From Acutalibacteraceae bacterium (lineage in GTDB: Bacteria; Bacillota; Clostridia; Oscillospirales; Acutalibacteraceae): 64,000 nucleotides of DNA. Both the position numbers and the translations under genes were made by a program. The notes beneath the pieces are model-generated. The model was not told where the DNA came from. It ran no database searches and was given only the letters and a program-made list of their open reading frames with translations. Shown one piece after another: positions 39,963 through 57,905 of this stretch. Positions within the stretch are counted from its first letter, which is position 1; every line of letters begins with the position of its first letter. Location: positions 164,842-228,841 of the forward strand of contig JAZQJD010000026.1 in the NCBI GenBank assembly GCA_045541435.1, read 5' to 3'.

Positions 39963-40038
39963 GCTGGAATAGCTCAGTTGGTAGAGCAGCTCATTCGTAA
40001 TGAGCAGGTCGCGTGTTCGAGTCACGTTTCCAGCTCCA
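39963..40038 (+). tRNA. tRNA-Thr (anticodon CGU)
   Basis: Cloverleaf folds by hand. 7-bp acceptor stem, D and T arms, anticodon loop TTCGTAA, and an encoded CCA. Confidence 0.9.
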
Positions 40039-40475: not shown

Positions 40476-41180
40476 TTAAACTTCTTCTGCTTCGTTCTTT
40501 TCGTTTTCAGCACCAAGAAAATCAATTTCGCCATTTTTATAAGCTTTTATAATTTTATTTAAAAGACTCCTTTTCAAAAAAACACTCTCAACCCAAAATC
40601 TTACAAATCTCCATTTTATGCCTTCTTCAGAAAACATCTTATAACTAGGTCTATTTATCTTTTTGGTAATATGTTTATCTATTCGCTTTTGCCACTTTTG
40701 AATATCTCCAATTAGCATCAAACCTACAAATTCATAGTTTGTTTCTCCAGTTTCATTCATAAATAATAGCAAGCACAATGTATATCTGTTCATAGCATAT
40801 AGATATGCTGATGTTGTTAAATCAAGATACCTTTCATGTTCTTCTCTACAATTTTGTATACCATCTAAAAATTCAATAAAAGTCTCCCTGCTTTCCATAA
40901 TTTCAGGATAATAAATATTATTAGAAAAAGTAGCATCCTCTGGCGTCTCTATATCATCACCAAACGAAAATATATCGATCGCAGCCGCTTTTAATTCCAC
41001 CTTTTTTACTTCTTCATACGCAGAAAAAATTTTTTCTCCCAATTTTTCTCTATAATTGATTTTTGTTTGTTTTTTTATTTTATGTAATTCAGCGATATGT
41101 GTAAGCAAAGCAGTAATTACAATAATTATCACTTTTTCTACTATGTCTTCTGTAAAAAAATCTTTTATAAGTTCAATCAT
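40476..41180 (-). CDS. Hypothetical protein (island cargo, no recognisable domain)
   Basis: 234-aa ORF. Second gene of a two-gene unit between the tRNA-Thr and its duplicated 3' end. Confidence 0.4.
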   Translation of the reverse strand: MIELIKDFFTEDIVEKVIIIVITALLTHIAELHKIKKQTKINYREKLGEKIFSAYEEVKKVELKAAAIDIFSFGDDIETPEDATFSNNIYYPEIMESRETFIEFLDGIQNCREEHERYLDLTTSAYLYAMNRYTLCLLLFMNETGETNYEFVGLMLIGDIQKWQKRIDKHITKKINRPSYKMFSEEGIKWRFVRFWVESVFLKRSLLNKIIKAYKNGEIDFLGAENEKNEAEEV

Positions 41181-41186
41181 ACTTAT

Positions 41187-41801
41187 TCACCTCAACTTAA
41201 CCTTAATTTCCGGACCAAAATTGAGTGGCTCAAAATCATCGTTAACTTCCCACAAATAACTATACAAATACAAGATATGTGTAGCATTGGATGGGTCGGT
41301 TTTGTATTGGCGATAATTAGCACAACTTGTCCAGAATTGTTCTGCAGTAAATCGTTCGGGAAGTGCTGATATAACTCTTGAAAAAGCTTCAACTTGTTCA
41401 TCCGAGAGCTTCATCCATACACTATTAACTGAAGGATTCGGCAAATCAGGTGCACTATCGAATTTCTGTTTAAGTTTTGGATTTTCAGCAAAGACTGTTT
41501 CAATGGATTGAAGGACATCATCTGCAACAAGTTTGCACCATTGTGCATCTACGAACTCACAACCATTGCTTGGTTTCATTTTTGCAGAAAATCCTTTTTT
41601 CAATATAATCCAATCACTAAGATGGTCACCTTTTTTCCATGATATTCCGTTATATGAGTAATCTTCATCTGCATATTTAGGGAAAACACCTACAACTTTC
41701 CAATAGCCTGAACTATATTGGGTAACCCAATCACCAACTTTAAAGGTTGAATATGTGTCATTTGTTTTTTCTTTCTTGTGGAATATATCAAACAAACCCA
41801 T
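41187..41801 (-). CDS. Hypothetical protein (island cargo, no recognisable domain)
   Basis: 204-aa ORF. A 6-nt gap separates it from the downstream ORF. Confidence 0.4.
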   Translation of the reverse strand: MGLFDIFHKKEKTNDTYSTFKVGDWVTQYSSGYWKVVGVFPKYADEDYSYNGISWKKGDHLSDWIILKKGFSAKMKPSNGCEFVDAQWCKLVADDVLQSIETVFAENPKLKQKFDSAPDLPNPSVNSVWMKLSDEQVEAFSRVISALPERFTAEQFWTSCANYRQYKTDPSNATHILYLYSYLWEVNDDFEPLNFGPEIKVKLR

Positions 41802-42085: not shown

Positions 42086-42781
42086 ATGGCAAAGTTCAAA
42101 TCAAATAAGAAAATAATAAAAATACTTATAATTGTTGCAGTAATTCTTATCGTGGCAAGTGTTCTTTTAAACGGCATTAACTTAGTACCATTCAGATACA
42201 GAAATGTACCTGTTTCTTTCTTAACTCCTGATTTAACATGGAACAGTAAGCCGAGTGATATTATTTTAAAATATGATTTACCCGAAGATATCGGCGAAGT
42301 AAATGACATAACAGGTGAACGCACTTTCAAATTTAAGTTAAATTATGATGAAAAAGAAGTATCTTTATCAGCTGATAACAGAGGTGCTCTTAATAGCGAA
42401 CTCCACCGCTATTATTTCACTATAGATTGCAAAACACCCGAAGAAGCAAACAAATACTTTGACGAATGTCATAAAAAGATGATGGATTTATATAAAAATG
42501 AGCCGGATTTTAAGTTTGAAGGCACAGAAACTGAAACTGATTATGAATTCAAAGATGGTTCACCCTGCTCTTATTCCTCTTCATATAAAAACGGGAAAGA
42601 AGAAATTCTGATTATAGACGATGACGGAAACGAAATTCCGGTTGAAGAAGCAGATAATGTTATACAAGTGAAAACAAAGGTAAACAGCTATGATATGAGT
42701 AATACAGTAGGTGTCAACTGGTGGCTTTCTTATTCCGAAGGGGATTCTTCAGTTTATTTACAGGCTGAAATTATGTATTAA
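42086..42781 (+). CDS. Hypothetical N-terminally anchored membrane protein
   Basis: N-terminal TM (IIKILIIVAVILIVASVLL). Acidic extracytoplasmic domain. Confidence 0.4.
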   Translation: MAKFKSNKKIIKILIIVAVILIVASVLLNGINLVPFRYRNVPVSFLTPDLTWNSKPSDIILKYDLPEDIGEVNDITGERTFKFKLNYDEKEVSLSADNRGALNSELHRYYFTIDCKTPEEANKYFDECHKKMMDLYKNEPDFKFEGTETETDYEFKDGSPCSYSSSYKNGKEEILIIDDDGNEIPVEEADNVIQVKTKVNSYDMSNTVGVNWWLSYSEGDSSVYLQAEIMY

Positions 42782-42846: not shown

Positions 42847-43842
42847 TTATTTAATCACTGCATATTTAAAAATCTCTTGAGCTTCTTCTTTGGTAAAGCC
42901 TGCGAGCTTGATTGCGTAAATCTTGCTTAAATCTTCTTTTGACTGGAAATACAAAAGATAGGTTTCAGTATTTTCTTCTGAGAGAATATAATGTCCCTGT
43001 GCCACTGCCCTATTATTTTCGGAAACAATATAATGGGAGTTACCGTTACCCATCGGCAATACTGATATTGCCATACTTGAATAATAGGCGCACGCCTTTG
43101 TATAATTCTCAAATGAACATAAAAGCTTTGCTTCGGGCGGGTCGCTTGAAATAAAATCTTTTAGCATTTTATAATTATAAGGAACTGCAACCTCTGTACT
43201 GTACCCATAATTCTCTATACCCTTTTTAGCAATGGCATAAACTATCGGATATTTTAAAGATTGATTAAAATATTTTTTATGTTCATCCAATGTAGGAATC
43301 GGCACACCTTGATTTTCATCGTAAATAACAATATTTTTACCTTTACCAAAATCAAGAATGTAAGTTCTTTCTATCTTCTTTTCCTTGTATTCACCAATTT
43401 CTGCATCTATATATAAATTAAAGTATTCGTTACTGTAATTACTCCTTGTATTGTCACCACTTTCAAAAACCTGGCAGGTATCCGTAACACCGCTATAGCG
43501 ACCCTTATCAAATTCGATTTTATATAACATCAACGGCACTTTAAGAAACGCAAATACGCCCAACAAAACAAGCACAACTAAAAATACTGATACGGTTTTG
43601 ATTATTGCTTTTTTCTTATCCTTTTTAAACATATTACCAACTCCTTTTATCAATTCTGTTGAATCATTGTTTAAAGCTTTAATTTCGGGTTGATTTGTTA
43701 ACTGCTCATATTCCTTTCTGCAGGATGGGCAAATATCCAAATGATTTTTTATAATTTCCGTTGATTCCTTACTGCAAAGGTCATCTATATACAGAGGCAA
43801 TAAATCCTTTATTAAGGAACAGCTTTCTTTATTCACCTTCAC
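42847..43842 (-). CDS. Anti-sigma factor (zf-HC2 zinc finger, single TM, extracytoplasmic domain)
   Basis: CSLIKDLLPLYIDDLC...HLDICPSCRKEY zinc-finger anti-sigma motif, then a TM and a 230-aa external domain. Overlaps the sigma gene. Confidence 0.65.
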   Translation of the reverse strand: MKVNKESCSLIKDLLPLYIDDLCSKESTEIIKNHLDICPSCRKEYEQLTNQPEIKALNNDSTELIKGVGNMFKKDKKKAIIKTVSVFLVVLVLLGVFAFLKVPLMLYKIEFDKGRYSGVTDTCQVFESGDNTRSNYSNEYFNLYIDAEIGEYKEKKIERTYILDFGKGKNIVIYDENQGVPIPTLDEHKKYFNQSLKYPIVYAIAKKGIENYGYSTEVAVPYNYKMLKDFISSDPPEAKLLCSFENYTKACAYYSSMAISVLPMGNGNSHYIVSENNRAVAQGHYILSEENTETYLLYFQSKEDLSKIYAIKLAGFTKEEAQEIFKYAVIK

Positions 43843-44329
43843 TCATCCTTTCTTCGATTTGTTTTTTTGCTCTGAAATATGTTACTCTCGCCCAGTTTTC
43901 TGTTTTATCGAAAACATCGGCAATAGTGGAATATGGCATATCTCCCAGGATTTTCATATAAAAAACTTCCTTATAGGGAGTTTCCAATTTAACGGCTTCA
44001 GTTAGAATTCTTTTAACATTTTCATTTTTAATTGCATTTTCTTCGGGGGTATTGTCTGCAACTAAATTGGGGTAATCTGAAATACTTTCCGCTTGCTTTT
44101 TCCTTTTGGAATTAAGAAAAATATTTCTTGCAATACTGCAAAGCCAGGTTTCGATTTTGCAGTCGTTTTTAAATGTATCAATCTTTTTAATTGCGTTATA
44201 AAAGGTTTCCTGCGTTATATCTTCCGCCAAAGCTTCATTAAGGCATAAAGACAAGGCATAGCTTTTCACATATTTATAATGCAAATTACACATTTTTTCT
44301 AAATCATCCAAAGCCGTCCCCCCTTTCAT
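43829..44329 (-). CDS. ECF-subfamily sigma-70 factor
   Basis: Sigma region 2 and region 4 motifs in a 166-aa ORF. Translationally coupled to the anti-sigma gene. Confidence 0.75.
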   Translation of the reverse strand: MKGGTALDDLEKMCNLHYKYVKSYALSLCLNEALAEDITQETFYNAIKKIDTFKNDCKIETWLCSIARNIFLNSKRKKQAESISDYPNLVADNTPEENAIKNENVKRILTEAVKLETPYKEVFYMKILGDMPYSTIADVFDKTENWARVTYFRAKKQIEERMSEGE

Positions 44330-44447
44330 TTTTATTTTATATGTAACAAATCCGCTTCAACCTTTTTGATTTTCAACTATTAGAAACATAAAAAGGCATT
44401 TCATTACAAAAATTTTTAAATATTTTTCATTTTTATTGTAACATAAA

Positions 44448-44484
44448 AATCCGCTTAACAGAATATTATCTGCTAAACGGATTT
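44448..44484. repeat. Conserved hairpin family, copy 2 (terminator of the SPFH gene)
   Basis: CCGCTTAACAGA-ATATTA-TCTGCTAAACGG followed by a T-run. Confidence 0.6.
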
Positions 44485-44524: not shown

Positions 44525-45916
44525 TTAAAGCTTTTCGCCACATTCAAGGCAGAATTTTGCACCTGTTGGAATTTCTGCACCGCATTTTGCACATTTAATA
44601 ATCAAGGATGCGCCACATTCCATACAGAACTTGCCTTTGGATGTCTTTTTACCACAAACAGGGCAAATCATTTCATTTTCTGCAAGGTTTTCTACCTTTG
44701 CACCACATTCAAGGCAGAATTTTGCATTAGCAGGTAAGGTATTGCCACATTTAGCGCATTTAATACTGCTTTCTGGAGTCTGGACGCTACCTGCAAAACC
44801 ATTGAAAACCTCACCTAACTGACCGCTCATTGCACCTGCTGCCTGAAGACCAACACCTAAGCCGACGATATCGCCCATCATACTGCCACCGGCACCATCG
44901 CCCCCCATATTGCCAAGACCTTCTGCAAATGCTTTCTGAACATCCGCCTGAACATATTCTTTTTCAGTAATACCTTTAGCAGCCATAATTTCAGCTTCTG
45001 CAAAGCCTGCCATTTTTGCTGCCTGTGCTTCTGTTTGCGCTTTAATAAGCTCACGCTCTGCTTCGCGTTTAGCGACCTCTGTTTCGGTTGTCTGTCGCTC
45101 AAGCTCAATCTGTCTCTGAGCTGCAGTAACCTCCGCCTCCGCCTCTGCTTTTGCAGTTCGGATTTCAGTTTCTGCCTCAACCATTCTCTTCTGGAATGAA
45201 ATTGTATGTAATTCTCGAATTTTCTTGAAGTTGAGGTCATCTTCGGGCAAAACAATTGTTGTCACATAAAGCTGAGGAATTGTTAAACCATATTCTTCAA
45301 AGCCGGGTATAAGTTCTTCTTTAAGAACTCCTGAAAGGTCTTCAAGTCTCTCATCTATTTCAAGAATATCTATTTCCCCCTGCTTGATAGCGATTGGAAG
45401 ATTCGCTTTAACTGCAGTTGAAATGAAAGGTCTGAAGCAGTCGTTAAGACTCTTTGTAAAGCCTTCCCTGCTATCGCCCCAGGCAATGCCGTTTGCAGTA
45501 CCAACAAGCTTTATAAGAAGCTTACGGGAATCGGAAACCTGAAGATTCATTTCACCGCTGGCACCTAACTCAAGGGGAACACCTGTAAGAGAATCAATAA
45601 AACGAACCTTACTGTCTGTGCCCCATTTAACAGACATCTGAACAGTTTTGTTAATGAAATAAACTTCGCAATGGAAAGGTGATTCCCCACCTGTTGCAAG
45701 GTTAAGAAGATTGCTGAGTAAGGGAATATTCTGTGTGGTGAGAGTATATCTTCCGGGTCCGAAAGAATCAAGTGCCTGACCGTTTTTAAAGAAAATTGCC
45801 TCCTGACTTTCGTGAACAATCAACTGTGAAAGAATATTAAAATCCTCTGCAGGATGCTTCCAGATAAATGTACTGTTATCGCCTTCATATTTAATAACAT
45901 CTATAATCTTTGCCAT
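44525..45916 (-). CDS. SPFH/band-7 (PF13421-like) protein with a coiled coil and three C-terminal zinc ribbons
   Basis: SPFH-like N-terminal domain, an Ala/Glu-rich coiled coil, and three CxxC...CxxCG ribbons (CAKCGNTL..FCLECG, CPVCGKK..FCMECG, CAKCGAEI..FCLECG). Confidence 0.65.
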   Translation of the reverse strand: MAKIIDVIKYEGDNSTFIWKHPAEDFNILSQLIVHESQEAIFFKNGQALDSFGPGRYTLTTQNIPLLSNLLNLATGGESPFHCEVYFINKTVQMSVKWGTDSKVRFIDSLTGVPLELGASGEMNLQVSDSRKLLIKLVGTANGIAWGDSREGFTKSLNDCFRPFISTAVKANLPIAIKQGEIDILEIDERLEDLSGVLKEELIPGFEEYGLTIPQLYVTTIVLPEDDLNFKKIRELHTISFQKRMVEAETEIRTAKAEAEAEVTAAQRQIELERQTTETEVAKREAERELIKAQTEAQAAKMAGFAEAEIMAAKGITEKEYVQADVQKAFAEGLGNMGGDGAGGSMMGDIVGLGVGLQAAGAMSGQLGEVFNGFAGSVQTPESSIKCAKCGNTLPANAKFCLECGAKVENLAENEMICPVCGKKTSKGKFCMECGASLIIKCAKCGAEIPTGAKFCLECGEKL

Positions 45917-45952
45917 ATTAAAGACCTCCTATTAATTTATGTCAATATATTT

Positions 45953-47689
45953 TTAATTAATTTTACTAACCAAAGCCCACAAAACTAGAATTAAGGAAAG
46001 AACCGCTACACCAATTAAAATTTTGGAGTAATGTTTTTTGTTTTTGTTATTATTCTTTCGTTCTTCTTCGGCTTTTTGGCGTTCAATACGCTCTTCCTCA
46101 GCCTTGTGTTCTCGCGCTATTCTGTCTGCTTGTTCCTTTGCTTTGATTTCTTCGATTCTTTTCTTACAAGCAATGATTTTTTCATCAGCATCTTTCCAAC
46201 CGGGAATTTCTTCAAGAAGCGCAATGGCGTTCACATACTTTGCGGTATTTGAGCCGGTCATATTCGCCTCAGCCTCAGAAAGAATTGTATCCTTTCTTGC
46301 AATCTCACCTTTTTCAAAGCATTCCTGAGATTTTTCCTTTGCATCGGCATAGTCCATAACCTCAATGAACATATATCCTGCATTTTCAAACATCTGCTCA
46401 GTTGTAGCACTTTCCATTATTTCAAGGGCGTTTTCATATAAATCCTTTTTACGAGCATCATCTAAACGCCTTGCAATAATTTTATTGCAGTTTTTAACTT
46501 TTTCTTTCAATTCGCTATCAGCAAACCGCATTATTTTTTCATAATTTTTATTATCGCTGAACGTTGTATAAAAGCTACTAAGATTTTCAAATTTTGAGAT
46601 TTCCAAATCAGCAAAAAGTTTACCTAAATATGCACTTGCGTTTTTAGGGTCTTGATTAAGTACAGCTTCAAAAAATTCATCCGCATTATCCCAATCCTGA
46701 TCTTCAAGAAAATGAAAGCCTCTCTCCAAAAGTGGTGCAACATCAACATTATCGTTATTCAAAACAATTTTTTCTTTTGAGGCTTTAACACGGGTTTTAT
46801 CAATAATGTGCTCGATACTTTCCATAAGGCTTCCGAAGAAAGTCACATCACCCATATCAAGAGCCTGCATATTTTTAAACTCTTTAGGAATGTCGTAGGC
46901 ATCCATATTCTTATAGCAAGGTATAAGCACCTTAGAAGAATTGTCGCCCATCATTGATATAAAACGAGACCACTCGTTTTTAACCCATACTGCATTGTAA
47001 TAATCGTGCTTTGTACCTATGGCAAGCATAATTTTTGCACTTGAAAGAGCCGCATAAATATATGGTTCATATTCCGTACCGGCAATCTCACGAAGAGAAG
47101 CTCTTGAAAAGAAAACTCGGTAACCGGCTCTCAAAAGCTCGGTATAAATATCCTGAGCTATAAGGCTATCCTCAGTTCGTGAACCGGTAATATCATCAAT
47201 TTCTTTATAACAAATGAAAATATCATAAGGTTCTTCATTTAAGGCTATATCAAGTATTTTCTTTTGAATTTTATCAATTGCTTTGGCTTCGTCACGGTAG
47301 ATGTTTTTTGCAGTTATATCAGCATACTCGCAAGCCTGCTGAAAATCATCATCTTCCATAATGGCAACAGGCAAGGTACGATGGCAGGTAGGAACCTTAC
47401 TTCCATTTCCGTCATCTACATATTCAATACCATACTTGCAAAGCACCAGCCCCCAATAGGCTTCAGCTTCATCACGAAATTCTGCAATAATACTTTCATA
47501 TATTCCGGCAGCTTTATCAAATTCACTTTTTATGCGAAGGTTATTGGCGCGAGAAAAAAGCGCAAGCTTTTTCTCATCATCCAATTTTGGCAGAGTCTGC
47601 TGTGTGCCACAATATTCGCAAGTGGCAACAGATTGATTATCCGAAATCTCCAACGCTCCCCCGCACATTTTACATTTAAAAATTGCCAT
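45953..47689 (-). CDS. Zinc-ribbon plus TIR-domain protein with TPR-like/coiled-coil regions and a C-terminal TM anchor
   Basis: N-terminal CKMCG...CEYCG ribbon. TIR motifs DIFICYKEID and WVKNEW (putative catalytic Glu). C-terminal coiled coil plus hydrophobic tail ILIGVAVLSLILVLWALV. Confidence 0.65.
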   Translation of the reverse strand: MAIFKCKMCGGALEISDNQSVATCEYCGTQQTLPKLDDEKKLALFSRANNLRIKSEFDKAAGIYESIIAEFRDEAEAYWGLVLCKYGIEYVDDGNGSKVPTCHRTLPVAIMEDDDFQQACEYADITAKNIYRDEAKAIDKIQKKILDIALNEEPYDIFICYKEIDDITGSRTEDSLIAQDIYTELLRAGYRVFFSRASLREIAGTEYEPYIYAALSSAKIMLAIGTKHDYYNAVWVKNEWSRFISMMGDNSSKVLIPCYKNMDAYDIPKEFKNMQALDMGDVTFFGSLMESIEHIIDKTRVKASKEKIVLNNDNVDVAPLLERGFHFLEDQDWDNADEFFEAVLNQDPKNASAYLGKLFADLEISKFENLSSFYTTFSDNKNYEKIMRFADSELKEKVKNCNKIIARRLDDARKKDLYENALEIMESATTEQMFENAGYMFIEVMDYADAKEKSQECFEKGEIARKDTILSEAEANMTGSNTAKYVNAIALLEEIPGWKDADEKIIACKKRIEEIKAKEQADRIAREHKAEEERIERQKAEEERKNNNKNKKHYSKILIGVAVLSLILVLWALVSKIN

Positions 47690-47833: not shown

Positions 47834-47871
47834 AAACCCGTTTAACAGAATATACTCTGCTAAACAGGTTT
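47834..47871. repeat. Conserved hairpin family, copy 3 (terminator of the BlaR1-like gene)
   Basis: CCGTTTAACAGA-ATATAC-TCTGCTAAACAGG followed by a T-run. Confidence 0.6.
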
Positions 47872-47886
47872 ATATTTTTTATATAA

Positions 47887-50784
47887 TTATTTATCAAACA
47901 ACAACACTTTATAATTACTTGAAACTAATGATTCACTCTCTTCAAAAACGAAGCTTTGAACATTTTCTTTTTCATAATGCGGAACAAGTATGAAATACAA
48001 TTTATTTTCAATTTGATAAGTTTGAGGCGTTAAATCGTGGGGCTTTGATGAGGAAATAAATTTATTGTTTTTCTCTTGTAAATAAGTAACGCCTGAATTT
48101 GCATTAGCTACATATTCCACATATTTTTCTTCATCCATAGTTAAAAGATAATATTCCGGTTGAGGTTCGGTTTTATCTATGTTCTTGGTTTGAAGAATAG
48201 AAAGCTCTGTTTTTTCAATAATCTCATCTATTGTCTGCATCCTGCCGTCATTTTTAGGATTATATTCAGAGAGTAAAACTATTTCTTCGTTAATCACATT
48301 GAAAAAAGCGGTATTATCGAAAGTAATAATAATATTTCCTTCAATCCAGAAATCCTCATTTGCTTTTGTTCCGTTATATACCCAGACATTAAATATGGCA
48401 TCTTCAATATTGCCTGTTGGTGTATATCTGATTCTGAAATTCTTGACCAATATATTTTCAAAATCAGTATTTAATGTAAATTTAATGTTGGATAAAATTT
48501 CATCAAATTGAGTCTTATCTGCAGGAATATCATTTTTTGAAATTTCATCATAAGTGCTGTTATCAGTTTTTATTGCAAGATATACTGTTTCTCTGTTGTT
48601 TTGGGTCTCTTCAGTTTCTCCCCATCTATCAGCTTTACAATATATTTTTCCATCCTGCACTAATTCAATTCTTTCAATTTCATAGTTTTGATTGGATGAA
48701 TATATACCGTTTGCATAAACTGTAACCCTAAAATCACTGTTTAAGCCTATGCTTTTCAATCTGCCGTTGCTTGTATAAAACAGTTTCTCATCATGAACAA
48801 CAAATTGTGGTGTTTTTGTTCCTATTCTATCAACTAAAACAGGTCCATCCGAGTACGTTTTATCATTATAGCACAGCCCATAAAACTGTAATTCACTTGT
48901 AGCATCTATAATGGCATAATAATAGTTTCCATAAATATGCTTTAAATCACCCGTATTTTCATAATATAAATTCAAGCCTAAAAGCGAACTGATATTTATA
49001 GCATCATATTCACTTTCATCACCGATATAACTTGATAAAACATGCTGAAATGGTTTAACAGTAATTTCTTCATTAGCAAGATTATATGATGAAAGTATCA
49101 GCTTCATTTCCTCAATACTTGCAAACTTATTAAAGTGTAATATTTTTTGAGGATCTATTGATTTTGAAGTAAGGTAACATTCAAAATTATCTTGACTTAG
49201 CTTTGTAACATAAACTGTAACGCCGTTTTCTGTATTCAAGCCAAAGAAATGAGGATACTTTTCTTGTAATTTTTCAATTTCTTTTTCTGTGCTTTCATCT
49301 GAAACGATAATCGAGGTAGGTCCGTCTGCTCCGCCGATTATGCCTATTGAGGAGCTGCTGCCTTTATTTTGAGATTTTTCATAAACAACCTCAAGCACAT
49401 CAAATTCAACTTCAATTTTGGTGTCTCGTCTATTCTTAAACCATTTTTTCGGAACAGAGAATACAAATTCTGTACCCGGACCTTTTGAATGGCAATATGA
49501 AGAATAGTGGCTGAAATCACCTGTTGCATCATATACATCTATTTTTTCGCCTAATTCCAGACCACCTTCAAATTGTTTTGCTTCTAACACATAAATCGTA
49601 CCCTCATTAGGTATATCTTTGTAAGTTACATCAAAAGTCAAGGTAAACATATCTTCATGACTGTACACTTCTTTAAAATTAAATTCTACAAAATCGTTAT
49701 AAGTATCCCGACCCTTAACTTTATAAACTCCATCCTGTTCAAACATTTCATCAGTTAACAGTCCCGTAACAAAAAAGATAGAAAAATCCTTTTCATTTGC
49801 ACTAATAACATCAAAGCCATCTTCATTTAAAATCCTATTCACCTTATCGTTTACAGGGTTGCTGATAAAGCAAATTGCTAAAACAAAGCTTATTATTACC
49901 GCAATTAAAACAACCCAGAATGCAGGTTTTTTGTAGTTTAAAACGGACTTGATTCTGTCTTTAACTCCAACCTCACCGAATGCAACAGGACACGCCATAA
50001 TCATTCTTCTGTTTGCACTGCAATTTAATAATGCAGTAGAATAAAGCTTTTTAAAGTCTGTATCGTAATTTTTAATTACTTTTTCATCACAAGCAGATTC
50101 AATATCTCTGCAAAGGAAAATATACCACAGCCATATCGCAGGGTTAAACCAATAAATTGACAGAATCAAAAATGAAATTGGTTTTATGATATGGTCTTTA
50201 CGCTTCAAATGTGATTTTTCATGCTCCAAAACAAATTCCAAATCTTCTTCATTCAAGCCTGACGGAACATAGATTTTAGGTTTAATTATTCCTAAAATAA
50301 AGGGTGTTTCAATATTATCGCAATAATAGATATTATCTTTATAAAGAACCGATACAGATACCTTTCTCTTTAAAATCACAAAAGAAACAAGGCTGTAAAG
50401 TACCATCAGAATTAAACCTATAACCCATATATATGATGCTATGCCAACCGCAACCATTAAGGGATTCACACTATAGCTCGGGTAAGGTGCAACAGCATTT
50501 GAAATTACAGGATTCACAACGTTATTAACAATATCAACGCCCGTATCTATTTGCGGATTGCTTGAAACGGTAATATTAGTGGGAATCGTTTCTGCTGACG
50601 GAACAAGGCTTAAAACACTTTCAAAGCTAAAAGGAAGACAAAGCCTTAAACCAACAACACCCCATAACAGACAATTTACCCATTTAGGAACCTTCTTTAA
50701 AAGTGGTCGCAGAATGGTAAATGCCAAGACTGCCCAAGTAGCAGTAATGCTCATATTAACAAGGGTTAAAAATAAATCATTCAT
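47887..50784 (-). CDS. BlaR1/MecR1-like M56 peptidase signal transducer with a ~650-aa C-terminal sensor domain
   Basis: N-terminal 4-TM M56 domain with the HEKSHLKRKDH zinc motif. A large extracytoplasmic domain of unknown fold follows. Confidence 0.7.
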   Translation of the reverse strand: MNDLFLTLVNMSITATWAVLAFTILRPLLKKVPKWVNCLLWGVVGLRLCLPFSFESVLSLVPSAETIPTNITVSSNPQIDTGVDIVNNVVNPVISNAVAPYPSYSVNPLMVAVGIASYIWVIGLILMVLYSLVSFVILKRKVSVSVLYKDNIYYCDNIETPFILGIIKPKIYVPSGLNEEDLEFVLEHEKSHLKRKDHIIKPISFLILSIYWFNPAIWLWYIFLCRDIESACDEKVIKNYDTDFKKLYSTALLNCSANRRMIMACPVAFGEVGVKDRIKSVLNYKKPAFWVVLIAVIISFVLAICFISNPVNDKVNRILNEDGFDVISANEKDFSIFFVTGLLTDEMFEQDGVYKVKGRDTYNDFVEFNFKEVYSHEDMFTLTFDVTYKDIPNEGTIYVLEAKQFEGGLELGEKIDVYDATGDFSHYSSYCHSKGPGTEFVFSVPKKWFKNRRDTKIEVEFDVLEVVYEKSQNKGSSSSIGIIGGADGPTSIIVSDESTEKEIEKLQEKYPHFFGLNTENGVTVYVTKLSQDNFECYLTSKSIDPQKILHFNKFASIEEMKLILSSYNLANEEITVKPFQHVLSSYIGDESEYDAINISSLLGLNLYYENTGDLKHIYGNYYYAIIDATSELQFYGLCYNDKTYSDGPVLVDRIGTKTPQFVVHDEKLFYTSNGRLKSIGLNSDFRVTVYANGIYSSNQNYEIERIELVQDGKIYCKADRWGETEETQNNRETVYLAIKTDNSTYDEISKNDIPADKTQFDEILSNIKFTLNTDFENILVKNFRIRYTPTGNIEDAIFNVWVYNGTKANEDFWIEGNIIITFDNTAFFNVINEEIVLLSEYNPKNDGRMQTIDEIIEKTELSILQTKNIDKTEPQPEYYLLTMDEEKYVEYVANANSGVTYLQEKNNKFISSSKPHDLTPQTYQIENKLYFILVPHYEKENVQSFVFEESESLVSSNYKVLLFDK

Positions 50785-50798
50785 ATTTCGCCCACCTT

Positions 50799-51152
50799 TT
50801 AAAACTTGTCAATCATTCTTTTTATTTCTTCAATTTCTTTTTCACTGGGCTTTTTCCTTGAAGTAAACGCAGCAACAAACGCAGGCAACGAACCCGCAAA
50901 TGCTTCATCAACAAATTTCTCACTCTGAATTGCATAAAATTCATTTTTTGAAATAAGAGCTGTAACAATACTGTTTTCTGTTTTAAAAATACCTCTTTCA
51001 CAAAGCTTTTTTAAAACTGTGTATGTAGTTGTTCTTTTCCATTTAAGCTCCTTTTCGCAAAATGCAACAAGCTCCTTTGTTGTTAATGGTTCATTCTCCC
51101 AAACAATATCTGCAAAACGAGCCTCAACCATACCTAATTTAATTTCTGCCAT
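50799..51152 (-). CDS. BlaI/MecI/CopY-family transcriptional repressor
   Basis: Winged-helix N-terminus (TTKELV...TTYTVLKKLCERG), 117 aa. Operator-like dyads lie upstream at 51165-51215. Confidence 0.85.
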   Translation of the reverse strand: MAEIKLGMVEARFADIVWENEPLTTKELVAFCEKELKWKRTTTYTVLKKLCERGIFKTENSIVTALISKNEFYAIQSEKFVDEAFAGSLPAFVAAFTSRKKPSEKEIEEIKRMIDKF

Positions 51153-54497: not shown

Positions 54498-57400
54498 GTG
54501 AAAAAGTTACTTTGTTTTATTTTATGCTTGATTCTTGCTTTTTCAAGTGTATCAGTTTTTGCACAGGCTTATGAGATTAATAACAACTCTCTTTCACCAC
54601 TTGAAGCCTTCACCCAAAAGCTCACCCAACTTACAAAGGAATATAATTCTAACAGTGATATTTCAGTTTTTTCATCGTATACACTTGATGAAAACGAGAT
54701 TGCTCATAATGACTCAACAAAACGTCTGATTGTTAAAGCAAAAGGTAAAATAGACGCTCTTAACGCAGTTGAGCATATTGAGGGCTACAACGATTTACAT
54801 ATTCTTCAATTCGATTCTTATGGTGATATGGAAAGTGCTTTAGCCTTTTACGAAAACTGCGAAAATGTTATTTATGTTCAAGAGGATTGCGTCAACAAAA
54901 CTGCTGAATATGAAATAATTGAAGAAAATGTGCCCTTTACCGAAAACTCAAATAACGAAAACTCCGCTAATGAAGTTACTAATCCTATGCAGGACTGTGC
55001 TGATGCACAAGGCTTTACTGCTTTAAGAAAAAAACTTGCTGATGAGAATAAAGTTTATGAACAAGAAATCACTGTGGCTGTTATTGATACAGGCGTTGAA
55101 GCAGAGCACGAGCTTTTAGCAGGAAGAGTTGAGCCCACGGGCTTTGACTCTATTGATGGTGTTTCCTGCGCTGACAAGGAAGGTCACGGTACACATGTTG
55201 CAGGTATAATAGCTTCAAACACACTTGATAATGTAACAATAAGACCATACAGAGTTTTAAATGAAGATGGTGAGGGTACAGATGCTCAAGTAGTTTTAGG
55301 TATTGAAGTCGCTATAGAAGATGGTGTCGATGTAATAAATATGAGCCTTGGAAGACGGGGCGAAAGTGCTCTTATGGATGAGGCGATAAAGAAGGCAAAT
55401 GATGCAGGCATTGTAGTAGTTGTTGCAGCCGGTAACGAAGGCTTTTGTATGGATGCCATTCCTTGCACTCCCGCTTGTTGTGAAAATGTAATTACTGTTA
55501 CCGCATGTCATAAAAATATGTCTGTTACTATGCCTTTTTCAAACTTCGGTTCAATGTGTGAAACAGGTGCTATAGGTAATAGTGTGAAAAGCTCGTATCT
55601 TAATAATACCTATGCATATTTGTCAGGCACCTCTATGGCAGCACCGTTTGTTGCAGCCGGAGTAACTTACCTGTTGCTTGATAATCCGAATTTGACTTAT
55701 GAAGAGATTGTAGATACTATAGATAAATTTGAGTATAATACTTTTCTGTTCCTTGAATACATTCTTGAAGATGATATTGTACAATTACCCGAACCTGAGT
55801 TTAGTGTTGTGGGTGGTGACTTTACAGAGGAATTTTATTTAGAGCTTACCTGCGAGGATGAAACTGCAACTATTTACTATACTCGTGGTTCTTTTGATAA
55901 ATTCCAGGGACAAATTTATAGCGAACCATTGAAAATAAAATACAACACTACTATTACAGCATATACCGCAAAGCGTGGTGCAAAATCAAGCGAAAAGGTA
56001 ACACAGACATTCACAAGAGCATTTCCGACAGATGAATATATGTATGAAATCACCGAAGATGGAGTAATTACCGAATATCTGGGTCCATGCACCGCTGATG
56101 ATAAGGAGTTAATTATACCTGATACAATTAAAGGGATAACCCCAACAACAATAGGCATTAATGCATTCAAGGGAAAGCAATTTTTTGAATATATTACAGT
56201 ACCGGATACCGTAACCAAACTTGATAGTTGTGCTTTTCAAGGGTGTTACAACCTTAAATTCTTTACAGGTAAAGGTGTAACTGTTGTGGGCAGCGGAGCC
56301 TTTGAAGGATGTTACGACCTAATTGATTTTATAGGTGGCGAACTTGAGGAGATTGGTGGTAACGGTTTTAAAAATTGCGAATCTTTAAGATTTATTGACA
56401 CAAGAAATCTTACAAGAATAGAAGGAGGTGCATTCAGGGAATCAAGTGCAATACAAACACTTGTTTCAGATAAACTTACTTATATCGGTCCTCAAGCTTT
56501 TTACGCAACCGATATAAACACTGTAGAATGTCCCAATGTCACCGAAATAGGTTTGGCGGCTTTTTCAGAATGTGAAAATCTAGAAACTGTATTTATTCCC
56601 AAAGTTACGGAACTCTCCGATGAACTTTTCGGCCCAAATATAAAAGAGGTTTATGCACCTTTAGTTGAACGAATAGGTGCATTCACCTTTGCTTATTCGA
56701 CAAACCTTAAAGAAGTGAATTTTCCTTTGGTAACCTATATATCTTGGAGTGCTTTTAAGGGGTGCGACCAAATAAAATCGTTTGATTTTCCGTTATTAAC
56801 ATATATAGGCGAAGAGGCTTTTAGAGATTGTACTGCACTCGAAAGCATTAACGCCCATTCGGTGACACATCTGGATAATTATGCTTTTATGAATTGTTCT
56901 TCATTAAAAGAGTTTGATTGTTCCTTGGTAACTGACTTTGGTATGAATGTTTTCAAGGGTTGCTCTTCACTTAAGGAGCTTGAGTTCGATTCTAATTTAA
57001 TCATTTATCGGGATACCTTTTATGATGAAATTACTGTAAACAAGGTTATTTTTAATAATCCTAAAAAAATTGTTGCATTTCCCTCCAATGTTCCCGTAGC
57101 TCTGCCGTCATCCCTTACGGATATTGTTGAGGATGACCCTGAAAATGTAATAATTTACGGAACAAAGGGCAGTTACGCCGAGGATTGGGCTTCTGACTAT
57201 GACCAGACTTTTATAGAAATAACTCCTCAGAGTGCAATATTTAATGATATCGAACCTTATTTCTTACCGGGTGATGAACCTCTTTATTTTGATGTGATAG
57301 GCCTTAACAGAACATATCAATGGTATGGTAATAATGAAAAATCCACCTCGAACGGTACTGCTATAAAAGGTGCTACAAACAGTAAATTTTCCCCGGCGGA

Positions 57401-57905
57401 TTATGATACAAAGTATAATTATTATTACTGTGTTGCAACAAGCAAAGATGGTGCGAACGATACTGTTTATATAACAAGCGACCTTTGCACATATTGCCAT
57501 ATTCCAATAAAGCCCAAAGTAAATACAACAATAAACTTTGAAAATTCGATGCTTTTTACATCTGAAACCGCAAAAACACTTCTTACCGACCTCGTTACCT
57601 TCGGTGAAGTTGGAAAAAATATACCCATCCCCTCTTACACATCAGGAACAAATGATTATTTCGGCACCGGCTCATATTTCATAATTTATTCAAACGGCAC
57701 GCCAAAATACACCTTCAATATTGTGGTCTACGGTGATTTAAATGGCGATAGTATTTGCGATGTAATTGATTGTTCCGAAGTAGCAAGAGCTGTTAATGGT
57801 CATAAGGAATTATCCGGCTTATATCATAATGCCGCCGATACTGACTCGAACGGTGAAATTGATATTTCAGACTATCAGTATATTGTTAACAGAGCATTAA
57901 AATAA
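54498..57905 (+). CDS. Secreted S8 subtilisin-like protease with BspA-type LRRs and a C-terminal type-I dockerin
   Basis: Signal peptide. Asp/His/Ser triad motifs (DTGV, HGTHVAG, GTSMAAP). LRR units in the middle. C-terminal GDLNGDSICDVID...DTDSNGEIDISD Ca-binding dockerin repeats. GTG start with AAGGGGGA RBS. Confidence 0.8.
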   Translation: MKKLLCFILCLILAFSSVSVFAQAYEINNNSLSPLEAFTQKLTQLTKEYNSNSDISVFSSYTLDENEIAHNDSTKRLIVKAKGKIDALNAVEHIEGYNDLHILQFDSYGDMESALAFYENCENVIYVQEDCVNKTAEYEIIEENVPFTENSNNENSANEVTNPMQDCADAQGFTALRKKLADENKVYEQEITVAVIDTGVEAEHELLAGRVEPTGFDSIDGVSCADKEGHGTHVAGIIASNTLDNVTIRPYRVLNEDGEGTDAQVVLGIEVAIEDGVDVINMSLGRRGESALMDEAIKKANDAGIVVVVAAGNEGFCMDAIPCTPACCENVITVTACHKNMSVTMPFSNFGSMCETGAIGNSVKSSYLNNTYAYLSGTSMAAPFVAAGVTYLLLDNPNLTYEEIVDTIDKFEYNTFLFLEYILEDDIVQLPEPEFSVVGGDFTEEFYLELTCEDETATIYYTRGSFDKFQGQIYSEPLKIKYNTTITAYTAKRGAKSSEKVTQTFTRAFPTDEYMYEITEDGVITEYLGPCTADDKELIIPDTIKGITPTTIGINAFKGKQFFEYITVPDTVTKLDSCAFQGCYNLKFFTGKGVTVVGSGAFEGCYDLIDFIGGELEEIGGNGFKNCESLRFIDTRNLTRIEGGAFRESSAIQTLVSDKLTYIGPQAFYATDINTVECPNVTEIGLAAFSECENLETVFIPKVTELSDELFGPNIKEVYAPLVERIGAFTFAYSTNLKEVNFPLVTYISWSAFKGCDQIKSFDFPLLTYIGEEAFRDCTALESINAHSVTHLDNYAFMNCSSLKEFDCSLVTDFGMNVFKGCSSLKELEFDSNLIIYRDTFYDEITVNKVIFNNPKKIVAFPSNVPVALPSSLTDIVEDDPENVIIYGTKGSYAEDWASDYDQTFIEITPQSAIFNDIEPYFLPGDEPLYFDVIGLNRTYQWYGNNEKSTSNGTAIKGATNSKFSPADYDTKYNYYYCVATSKDGANDTVYITSDLCTYCHIPIKPKVNTTINFENSMLFTSETAKTLLTDLVTFGEVGKNIPIPSYTSGTNDYFGTGSYFIIYSNGTPKYTFNIVVYGDLNGDSICDVIDCSEVARAVNGHKELSGLYHNAADTDSNGEIDISDYQYIVNRALK

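Follow-up and report, generated by a model that had tools for sequence, protein, structure and literature searches.

A TIR and SPFH gene pair from an Acutalibacteraceae bacterium is a reduced version of a conserved Clostridial membrane module

The T-S operon

The stretch of DNA analyzed here (hereafter the window) comprises 64,000 nucleotides of contig JAZQJD010000026.1 (positions 164,842 to 228,841; assembly GCA_045541435.1) of an Acutalibacteraceae bacterium, and it carries on its minus strand two adjacent genes, here designated T and S. The T gene (45953-47689) is a 578-residue open reading frame (ORF) that specifies a zinc ribbon, a TIR domain, helical repeats and a membrane tail anchor, while the S gene (44525-45916) is a 463-residue ORF that specifies a cytoplasmic SPFH domain of the Band_7_1 family, a long helix, a Gly-rich linker and three zinc ribbons. 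Comparison with related loci reveals that this pair is a reduced version, without an ectodomain on T and without a third gene designated M, of a conserved Clostridial membrane module, written below as T(n)-S-M. This module is real, is undescribed in the sources searched and represents a variant of TIR-based systems; as judged from its sequence, it may constitute a new membrane-based immune or damage-sensing system.

T and S are co-oriented, are both intact and form one operon, as had been proposed in the initial annotation of the locus, which described two co-oriented genes located 36 nt apart. The 36-nt spacer (45917-45952, minus strand) holds the ribosome-binding site of S, seen on sequence inspection as AGGAGG at 45925-45930, 8 nt ahead of the start codon. 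A consensus scan of the minus strand between 44200 and 48000 returned two terminator-like sites only, one on each side of T-S and none between the two genes. The intrinsic terminator located 3' of S (44447-44484, minus strand) consists of a 16-bp stem followed by a T-run (dG -21.9 kcal/mol, z -7.5), and a near-identical copy of this hairpin (47834-47871, minus strand) represents the intrinsic terminator of the upstream blaR1-like gene and the 5' boundary of the T-S unit; both fold at approximately -22 kcal/mol, with z values of -7.5 and -7.8, respectively. Since no terminator separates T from S and a strong hairpin is present on either side, the two genes make up a single transcription unit.

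The two bracketing 38-nt hairpins lie in direct orientation, their likeness ends at the hairpin edges, and they may be the footprint of a rearrangement that produced the present gene order. The suggestion that the unit is bracketed by a conserved family of hairpin terminators holds as far as the bracketing is concerned, but the supposed family is limited to these two copies, with no further copy in the rest of the window or in the 170 other loci searched.

Domain composition of the T protein

The domains initially assigned to T (a zinc ribbon, TIR motifs, a TPR-like region and a C-terminal transmembrane (TM) segment) were all recovered. Residues 1-150 (47240-47689, minus strand) comprise the N-terminal zinc ribbon and a conserved alpha/beta domain without a family match, a region that was modelled by AlphaFold2 with a predicted confidence (pLDDT) of 70-90; the four Cys residues of the CxxC...CxxC ribbon (C6, C9, C24 and C27) are invariant among 49 homologues. 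The TIR domain follows at residues 151-295 (46805-47239, minus strand), as defined by Pfam TIR_2 (PF13676; residues 157-280, E=5.8e-11, 43.4 bits versus a gathering cutoff of 28) together with a family profile, and it displays both a beta-A motif (D156-I-F-I-C-Y-K-E) and the motif W235-V-K-N-E239-W, the codon for E239 being located at 46973-46975.

A PDB search with the single T sequence returned designed TPR proteins only, and a family profile was required to reach TIR structures. The profile of the T-family TIR domain matched that of TLR15/TLR2 best (E=1.5e-5), followed by the flax protein L6 and the bacterial structure 7uxr, and E239 falls on the catalytic Glu of L6 (KWCLMEL) and on the matching Glu of 7uxr (NWTEYEL). 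Among the 175 unique TIR domains of all fetched loci, for which the median identity to the window T is 54%, E239, W235 and the beta-A Asp are each retained in 174, while N238 is retained in all 175. E239 is thus conserved at the position on which the initial annotation had staked its reading, and by these alignments it is the putative catalytic Glu.

Residues 296-545 (46055-46804, minus strand) form TPR-like helical repeats that close with a long charged helix. Pfam TPR matches in this region (residues 320-357) are below threshold; residues 320-520 were nevertheless modelled with a pLDDT above 90, and Foldseek, queried with the complete model of T, found no more than generic TPR superhelices and nothing on the N-terminal domain. 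The lone C-terminal TM anchor (residues 557-575; 45965-46021, minus strand; hydropathy 2.83) is preceded by a Lys-rich stretch, KNNNKNKKHYSK. As it is the only hydrophobic helix of the protein and is followed by just three residues, T is predicted to be tail-anchored, with its N-terminus inside the cell. The T model as a whole has a pLDDT of 77, from a shallow alignment of closely related sequences. Homologues of T populate at least 8000 protein clusters, mostly from metagenome-assembled genomes (MAGs) of Clostridia, and ratios of nonsynonymous to synonymous substitution (dN/dS) of 0.07-0.18 relative to two related loci (L171 and L174) indicate purifying selection.

Domain composition of the S protein

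The initial domain assignments for S were likewise confirmed. Band_7_1 (PF13421) matches residues 29-226 with E=2.4e-37 (129 bits versus a cutoff of 24), a long helix spans residues 228-313 and is followed by the Gly-rich linker, and the C-terminal part (residues 384-463; 44528-44767, minus strand) contains three CxxC...CxxC zinc ribbons at residues 387-404, 418-434 and 442-459, in agreement with additional Pfam matches to Zn_Ribbon_1 and DZR. The Cys pairs 387/390, 401/404, 418/421 and 431/434 are invariant, and the pairs 442/445 and 456/459 nearly so. No TM segment was identified in S by Pfam and model inspection, a hydropathy scan not having been made. The AlphaFold2 model of S is of low overall confidence (pLDDT 59), again from a shallow alignment of closely related sequences; its SPFH core and long helix were matched by Foldseek to cage subunits of flotillin, stomatin, HflK/C and prohibitin (E ~1e-5).

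S is under purifying selection (dN/dS 0.05-0.10), its homologues fall into at least 8000 protein clusters, mostly from Clostridia MAGs, and its relatives are encoded in at least 582 genomic stretches of GTDB sampled at one genome per species, namely in 582 of the 600 matches listed. The architecture of S varies between lineages. Ruminococcus-type S proteins (L065 9620-11569, L076 9809-11437 and L079 9620-11518) bear several extra N-terminal zinc ribbons besides the C-terminal ones, and in locus L048 (8666-11356), from a MAG, S is a single 896-residue ORF in which an N-terminal Hanks-type Ser/Thr kinase is fused to the SPFH-zinc-ribbon protein, which is either a real fusion or an assembly artefact.

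Conservation of the T(n)-S-M module

To define the neighbours of S, the best 80 loci among the at least 582 related stretches were subjected to ORF calling, searches with domain hidden Markov models (HMMs) and clustering of all neighbouring genes. The only families that recur in these loci are S itself, T-like genes (94 genes in 60 loci) and M, any other neighbour family being present in at most eight S loci. Among the 42 S loci with at least 5 kb on each side, T is present in 37 (88%), as one to four genes, and M in 40 (95%); all three are co-directional in these loci, and M nearly always lies just 3' of S, mostly immediately so. Conversely, 80 metagenome loci were collected around T, of which 49 contain S and 62 contain S or M, and S is present in 14 of the 16 T-anchored loci with at least 2.5 kb on both sides of the T block. 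These two-way counts (37/42 and 14/16) rule out a chance adjacency of T and S, and the co-occurrence in other genomes that the initial annotation called for extends to hundreds of species-level genomes. The pair originally described as a two-component unit is therefore real, but it forms part of a conserved module of three components, of which the window holds a reduced copy. Where source titles name a habitat, it is always gut or rumen.

M, a protein of approximately 232 residues, contains four TM helices, a helical domain located in the cytoplasm and the motif YEAxRYSDPMS, and it has no match in Pfam, NCBIfam or PADLOC. An HMM built from 73 M sequences matches no ORF of the window at E<=10, and a gene of similar size in the window (231 residues, 42086-42781), considered as a candidate for M, proved unrelated. 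The M-less order T-S-sigma-anti-sigma is also found in four related loci from other samples (L171-L174), and the absence of M from the window is thus not a one-off loss; the two-gene form is itself under purifying selection (dN/dS 0.05-0.18). A different M-less arrangement, T-T-S, was observed in the isolate Ruminococcus flavefaciens MC2020 (L076), and the availability of a related locus in an isolate makes experiments feasible.

S-M loci without a TIR gene have as neighbours other membrane proteins that start with a zinc ribbon, of the forms ZnR-TM2, ZnR-2TM and ZnR-TPR-TM-RCC1/DUF6273. Since these TIR-less partners share the zinc-ribbon start with T, all S-M partners have the N-terminal ribbon domain in common.

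Exchange of C-terminal regions among T proteins

Within the T family the C-terminus is modular on a strongly conserved cytoplasmic core, and consists of a bare TM anchor, of a TM helix with an ectodomain, or of a zinc ribbon without a TM helix. The C-terminal extension ranges from 0 to 1929 residues overall, the ectodomains being composed of 200-1900 residues of extracellular repeats, and a scan of 40 of them identified DUF6273 in 14, LRR_5 in eight, RCC1 in seven and Flg_new in three. A TM helix was never found ahead of the TIR domain and was found after it in 100 of 120 T homologues; by a crude hydropathy threshold it follows the TIR domain in 53 of the 91 T genes of the loci. The core of the window T (N-terminal domain and TIR domain) is 91% identical to that of RCC1-bearing homologues, 86% to that of a DUF6273-bearing homologue and 78-82% to those of homologues with a zinc-ribbon tail. 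Such near-identical cores with different C-termini imply that the swap is recent relative to core divergence. The T paralogues of a single locus are old lineages, 41 of 47 being closer to a T protein of another locus than to their own neighbours.

LRR repeats homologous to the T-paralogue ectodomains of four loci (L026, L028, L029 and L017) also occur elsewhere in the window, in a 1135-residue protein (54498-57905, plus strand) in which a subtilase S8 domain and CHB_HEX_C/Fn3-associated domains are joined to four LRR_5 blocks and a dockerin.

The nature of these ectodomains raises an alternative explanation for the T family, i.e., that its members are surface receptors for adhesion to or recognition of host glycans, fibre or bacteria, whose TIR domain is a non-enzymatic interaction module, with S and M organizing microdomains. 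LRR_5/BspA, RCC1, Flg_new and DUF6273 are typical Firmicute surface-protein repeats, some of them shared with the dockerin-bearing subtilase of the window, the closest TIR structures by profile are those of animal TLRs, which act as scaffolds, and the named habitats of the module would be in keeping with such a role. Nonetheless, we consider this explanation very unlikely, as W235, N238 and E239 are conserved almost without exception, which points to catalysis or at least to a precise active-site-like pocket, as many T proteins, that of the window included, lack an ectodomain or end in a zinc ribbon in place of the TM helix, and as no gene for a downstream TIR adaptor was found among the neighbours. 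A T protein without an ectodomain cannot bind anything outside the cell.

Relationship to known systems

The initial annotation did not recognize the TIR-SPFH pairing as a described system, and this assessment was upheld. Neither T nor S has a match in PADLOC (E<=0.1), while a PADLOC search with three M proteins, a long T homologue and a T paralogue from elsewhere returned a lone weak match, of the paralogue to PDC-S66 (E=8e-4). Matches to NCBIfam are all sub-threshold, e.g., 20 bits for Thoeris type III ThcB4 versus a cutoff of 220, and in the openly accessible literature searched no paper was found that pairs TIR with SPFH, Band-7 or flotillin proteins.

The closest likeness to S, which was missed at first, is with a stress-related family. 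Band_7_1 is presumably the Pfam family of the Bacillus subtilis protein YdjI/SamI, which the papers on that protein assign to Band 7/SPFH only. YdjI/SamI is a product of the pspA-ydjGHI (pspA-samGHI) operon and, by its published description, is like S a soluble SPFH protein with a low-complexity linker and a C-terminal Zn finger, although S has three zinc ribbons, with additional N-terminal ones in some lineages. YdjI/SamI is brought to the membrane by YdjG and YdjH, of which YdjG bears N-terminal zinc ribbons (PMC8581546; PMC11237479; bioRxiv 10.64898/2026.02.06.704340), and the partner genes of S likewise specify membrane proteins that start with zinc ribbons. By its description, YdjG combines a pair of zinc ribbons with a YpeB/NTF2-like domain and a TM helix; T shares the ribbon and the TM helix, but possesses a TIR domain and helical repeats instead of the YpeB/NTF2-like domain. 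The two systems differ further in that T paralogues often carry a large ectodomain and in that M is a four-TM partner without a known family. Neither pspA nor a gene for the TPM-domain protein YdjH is located near T-S in the window or belongs to the conserved neighbours, and neither is represented in the 25 Pfam families that occur most often in a set of 148 flanking genes.

This likeness gives substance to a second alternative, according to which the module is a non-immune system for envelope stress or membrane homeostasis and the Clostridial counterpart of SamGHI (YdjGHI): S would stabilize or report the state of the membrane, T and M would act as membrane receptors, and the TIR domain would tune physiology rather than serve as a suicide switch. 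Apart from the shared architecture of S and YdjI/SamI and the zinc-ribbon-first membrane partners, it is in keeping with the strong conservation of the module, its wide distribution in gut Clostridia and its housekeeping neighbourhoods, with the fusion of one S protein (L048) to a Ser/Thr kinase and with the position of the window copy next to genes for an extracytoplasmic function (ECF) sigma factor and its anti-sigma factor, a typical regulator of envelope stress. The sigma/anti-sigma linkage is, however, lineage-specific, and genes for PspA, TPM-domain and NfeD proteins are neither conserved beside S nor among those 25 commonest families. Furthermore, we know of no housekeeping role in bacteria for a catalytic-type TIR domain with an invariant Glu, and the swapping of ectodomains, the variable copy number and the carriage by phages are better suited to a conflict system. 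An envelope-stress function is a serious competing explanation, if somewhat less probable than envelope surveillance; if it proved correct, it would establish a TIR role outside immunity and would extend the SamGHI paradigm to anaerobes.

SPFH proteins are also encoded in operons with NfeD, from which the S locus differs in having no NfeD-family gene among its conserved or commonest neighbours: M does not match NfeD, nor does NfeD figure in the 25 most frequent Pfam families of the flanking genes. With regard to cage-forming SPFH complexes (HflK/C-FtsH, flotillin, stomatin, prohibitin and erlin), the SPFH core and the wall helix of the S model superpose on their subunits. The HflK/C-FtsH cage encloses a membrane client enzyme. 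S differs from the proteins of these cages by having no identified TM segment or hairpin and no NfeD or FtsH nearby, and its proposed client is a TIR protein.

Among TIR-based anti-phage systems, Thoeris (types I-XI) resembles the module in the Glu at the catalytic position, in the presence of several divergent TIR genes beside a conserved non-TIR partner and in the variable sensor-like regions fused to the TIR domain. It differs in that T(n)-S-M lacks a ThsA-type or any other known domain for effector function or signal binding, the only conserved neighbours of T being S and M, and in that T is membrane-anchored, has a highly conserved cytoplasmic part, belongs to no ThsB or Thoeris model and was seen in no defence-island context. 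Membrane-spanning effectors are common among the newly described Thoeris types (bioRxiv 10.64898/2025.12.03.692087). This fact, together with the similar gene layout and with the tighter association of S with M (40 of 42 loci) than with T (37 of 42), is consistent with a third alternative, in which T proteins would be sensors that produce a nucleotide signal and M or S would be the effector that damages the membrane upon signal binding. Yet the lineage of the window maintains T-S under purifying selection, with M missing from the 64 kb and from the related loci alike, S-M pairs are also seen beside zinc-ribbon partners that have no TIR domain, and neither M nor S has a recognizable nucleotide-binding domain (SLOG, Macro, SAVED or CARF). 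Together with the very low NCBIfam Thoeris score, the lack of a PADLOC ThsB match and the absence of an SPFH/Band-7 partner from the text and supplements of a systematic, defence-island-based survey of TIR defence published in 2025, these observations render a Thoeris-like scheme distinctly improbable.

Some T paralogues are also reminiscent of animal Toll-like receptors (TLRs) in that they join an extracellular LRR region, a single TM helix and a cytoplasmic TIR domain. Their topology is inverted, with an N-terminal TIR domain and a C-terminal ectodomain, their LRRs are of the BspA type (LRR_5) and they contain an additional zinc ribbon and helical repeats, while the window T, with three residues outside the membrane, has no ectodomain and does not share this architecture. 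The resemblance is one of convergent architecture, and there is no evidence of orthology.

Proposed role and mechanism

The reading that we favour, albeit tentatively and with somewhat less than even confidence, is that the module performs envelope surveillance against attack, with phages as the leading candidate, and acts in the manner of abortive infection. According to this proposal, S is a soluble SPFH protein of the YdjI/SamI type that, by analogy, probably assembles on the membrane's inner face into a large ring or cage, where it would be held by its partners M and/or T. T probably docks to the S/M assembly through its N-terminal zinc-ribbon domain, a role proposed because this domain is the sole feature common to all of the variable S-M partners. 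The TIR domain, facing the cytoplasm, would be the output, as T alone among the components has a catalytic domain. A trigger would change how T is held or clustered in the S assembly: for the long T paralogues it could be a ligand bound by the extracellular DUF6273, LRR or RCC1 region, and for a tail-anchored T such as that of the window it could be a disturbance of membrane or scaffold. Self-association of the TIR domains and cleavage of NAD+ would follow, and the resulting depletion or nucleotide signal would stop growth.

A defence role is plausible in the light of the catalytic-type TIR domain, the variable, sensor-like set of T proteins, the swapping of their C-termini, the rearrangement of the locus and its carriage by phages; the initial interpretation of T-S is, taken as a whole, partly supported. 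Several observations weigh against envelope surveillance. S is 53-88% identical across several Clostridial families, and the cytoplasmic core of T is also unusually conserved, which is not the usual behaviour of defence genes. The PADLOC searches and the 2025 survey mentioned above link none of the components to a known defence system, save for the weak PDC-S66 match. The 148 flanking genes are mostly of housekeeping function (Sua5/CoaE, M18 peptidase, SpoIVB, Spo0A and MatE), and the PADLOC matches among them are few and mostly to generic HTH models, so that the defence-island setting envisaged at first was not seen in this set of neighbours. A search of 2.9 million viral contigs turned up only five S loci. 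A Glu at the position of E239 is also present in the non-enzymatic TIR domains of animal TLRs, the best structural-sequence match, and E239 is therefore necessary but not sufficient for NADase activity; moreover, the TIR region of the T model is poor (pLDDT 50-70, and below 50 at residues 226-239). That T contacts S, that a cage forms and what the zinc ribbons do are all proposed by analogy. Finally, as the window T has no ectodomain and M is absent, sensing from the outside cannot apply to the window copy.

A more specific version of the immune interpretation, which we judge unlikely, is that the T family consists of transmembrane TIR receptors whose swappable ectodomains sense an outside threat, such as an adsorbing phage or an attack on the cell wall, and whose TIR enzyme is held in an SPFH cage; the tail-anchored T of the window would then be a ligand-independent member that senses membrane integrity. 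Were this correct, it would amount to an outside-in innate immunity of bacteria that is convergent with that of TLRs, and to the first SPFH scaffold that gates an immune effector. If the ectodomains do sense extracellular ligands, this would be a rare case of bacterial threat detection before cell entry.

The interest of the module lies in the fact that it is plentiful in Clostridia of gut and rumen, by the counts of genomic stretches and protein clusters given above, yet undescribed in the sources searched, and that it unites two well-studied protein classes that are unlinked in the literature searched, i.e., TIR proteins, which serve in immunity as NADases or as producers of signals, and SPFH scaffolds, the builders of membrane cages. 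Should T be an active NADase under the control of an SPFH protein, the module would provide a concrete client and function for bacterial SPFH proteins, and would constitute a membrane branch of TIR immunity.

Genomic neighbourhood of T-S in the window

Downstream of S are the genes for an ECF sigma factor (43829-44329, minus strand; Sigma70_r2/r4_2) and a zf-HC2 anti-sigma factor (42847-43842, minus strand), both assigned by Pfam, which together (42847-44329) fill the slot that is held by M in most other genomes. The presence of this pair next to the unit, which had been pointed out in the initial annotation, is thus confirmed, but the adjacency is confined to the window's own lineage and is not conserved in other loci; in locus L008 the pair is positioned upstream of T instead of downstream. 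Upstream of T are located genes for a BlaR1-like M56 sensor (965 residues, the long C-terminal half being unannotated) and a BlaI repressor (47887-51152, minus strand), followed by TypA/BipA. The BlaR1/BlaI pair is found in L171-L173 and is missing from L174, where TypA is directly ahead of T, and it consequently looks like a recent insertion.

On the other side, a tRNA-Thr gene (39963-40038) is separated from the anti-sigma gene by three hypothetical genes (40476-41180 and 41187-41801, minus strand, and 42086-42781, plus strand) without a Pfam or PADLOC match, of which only the 231-residue one (42086-42781) has a homologue in L008. The location had been described as a tRNA-adjacent accessory island. 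The tRNA gene is indeed present, but the region around T-S is only modestly AT-richer (GC 0.32-0.36 versus approximately 0.40), and its variability is better illustrated by rearrangements among close relatives, since the arrangement of the T-S locus differs between genomes with 97.7% identical TypA.

Mobile and phage-borne copies

Among the 148 flanking genes, seven specify integrases. A cassette of genes for a DNA invertase, S, M and a partner was found on each of two genuine phage contigs (L086 8817-15046 and L089 7083-11443), whose matches to PHROG families for endolysin, terminase, portal and major head proteins confirm their phage identity. L086 has a TIR-bearing T protein as the partner, and that of L089 is a zinc-ribbon protein without a TIR domain. 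In L089 the cassette lies between the portal and major head genes, a position that suggests a mobile cargo cassette. A protein of approximately 155 residues is also encoded in the phage cassette; its ORF, which lies between M and T in phage loci, was considered as a fourth core gene and rejected, being present in six loci only.

A distant S-M-zinc-ribbon module (S 43% identical) was observed on a 73-kb contig classified as viral (L087 286-8818 and 18321-20597), where it is flanked by genes that by eye resemble those for SbcCD-type and AAA-ATPase proteins, and by a serine recombinase gene, which may represent a defence-island-like setting.

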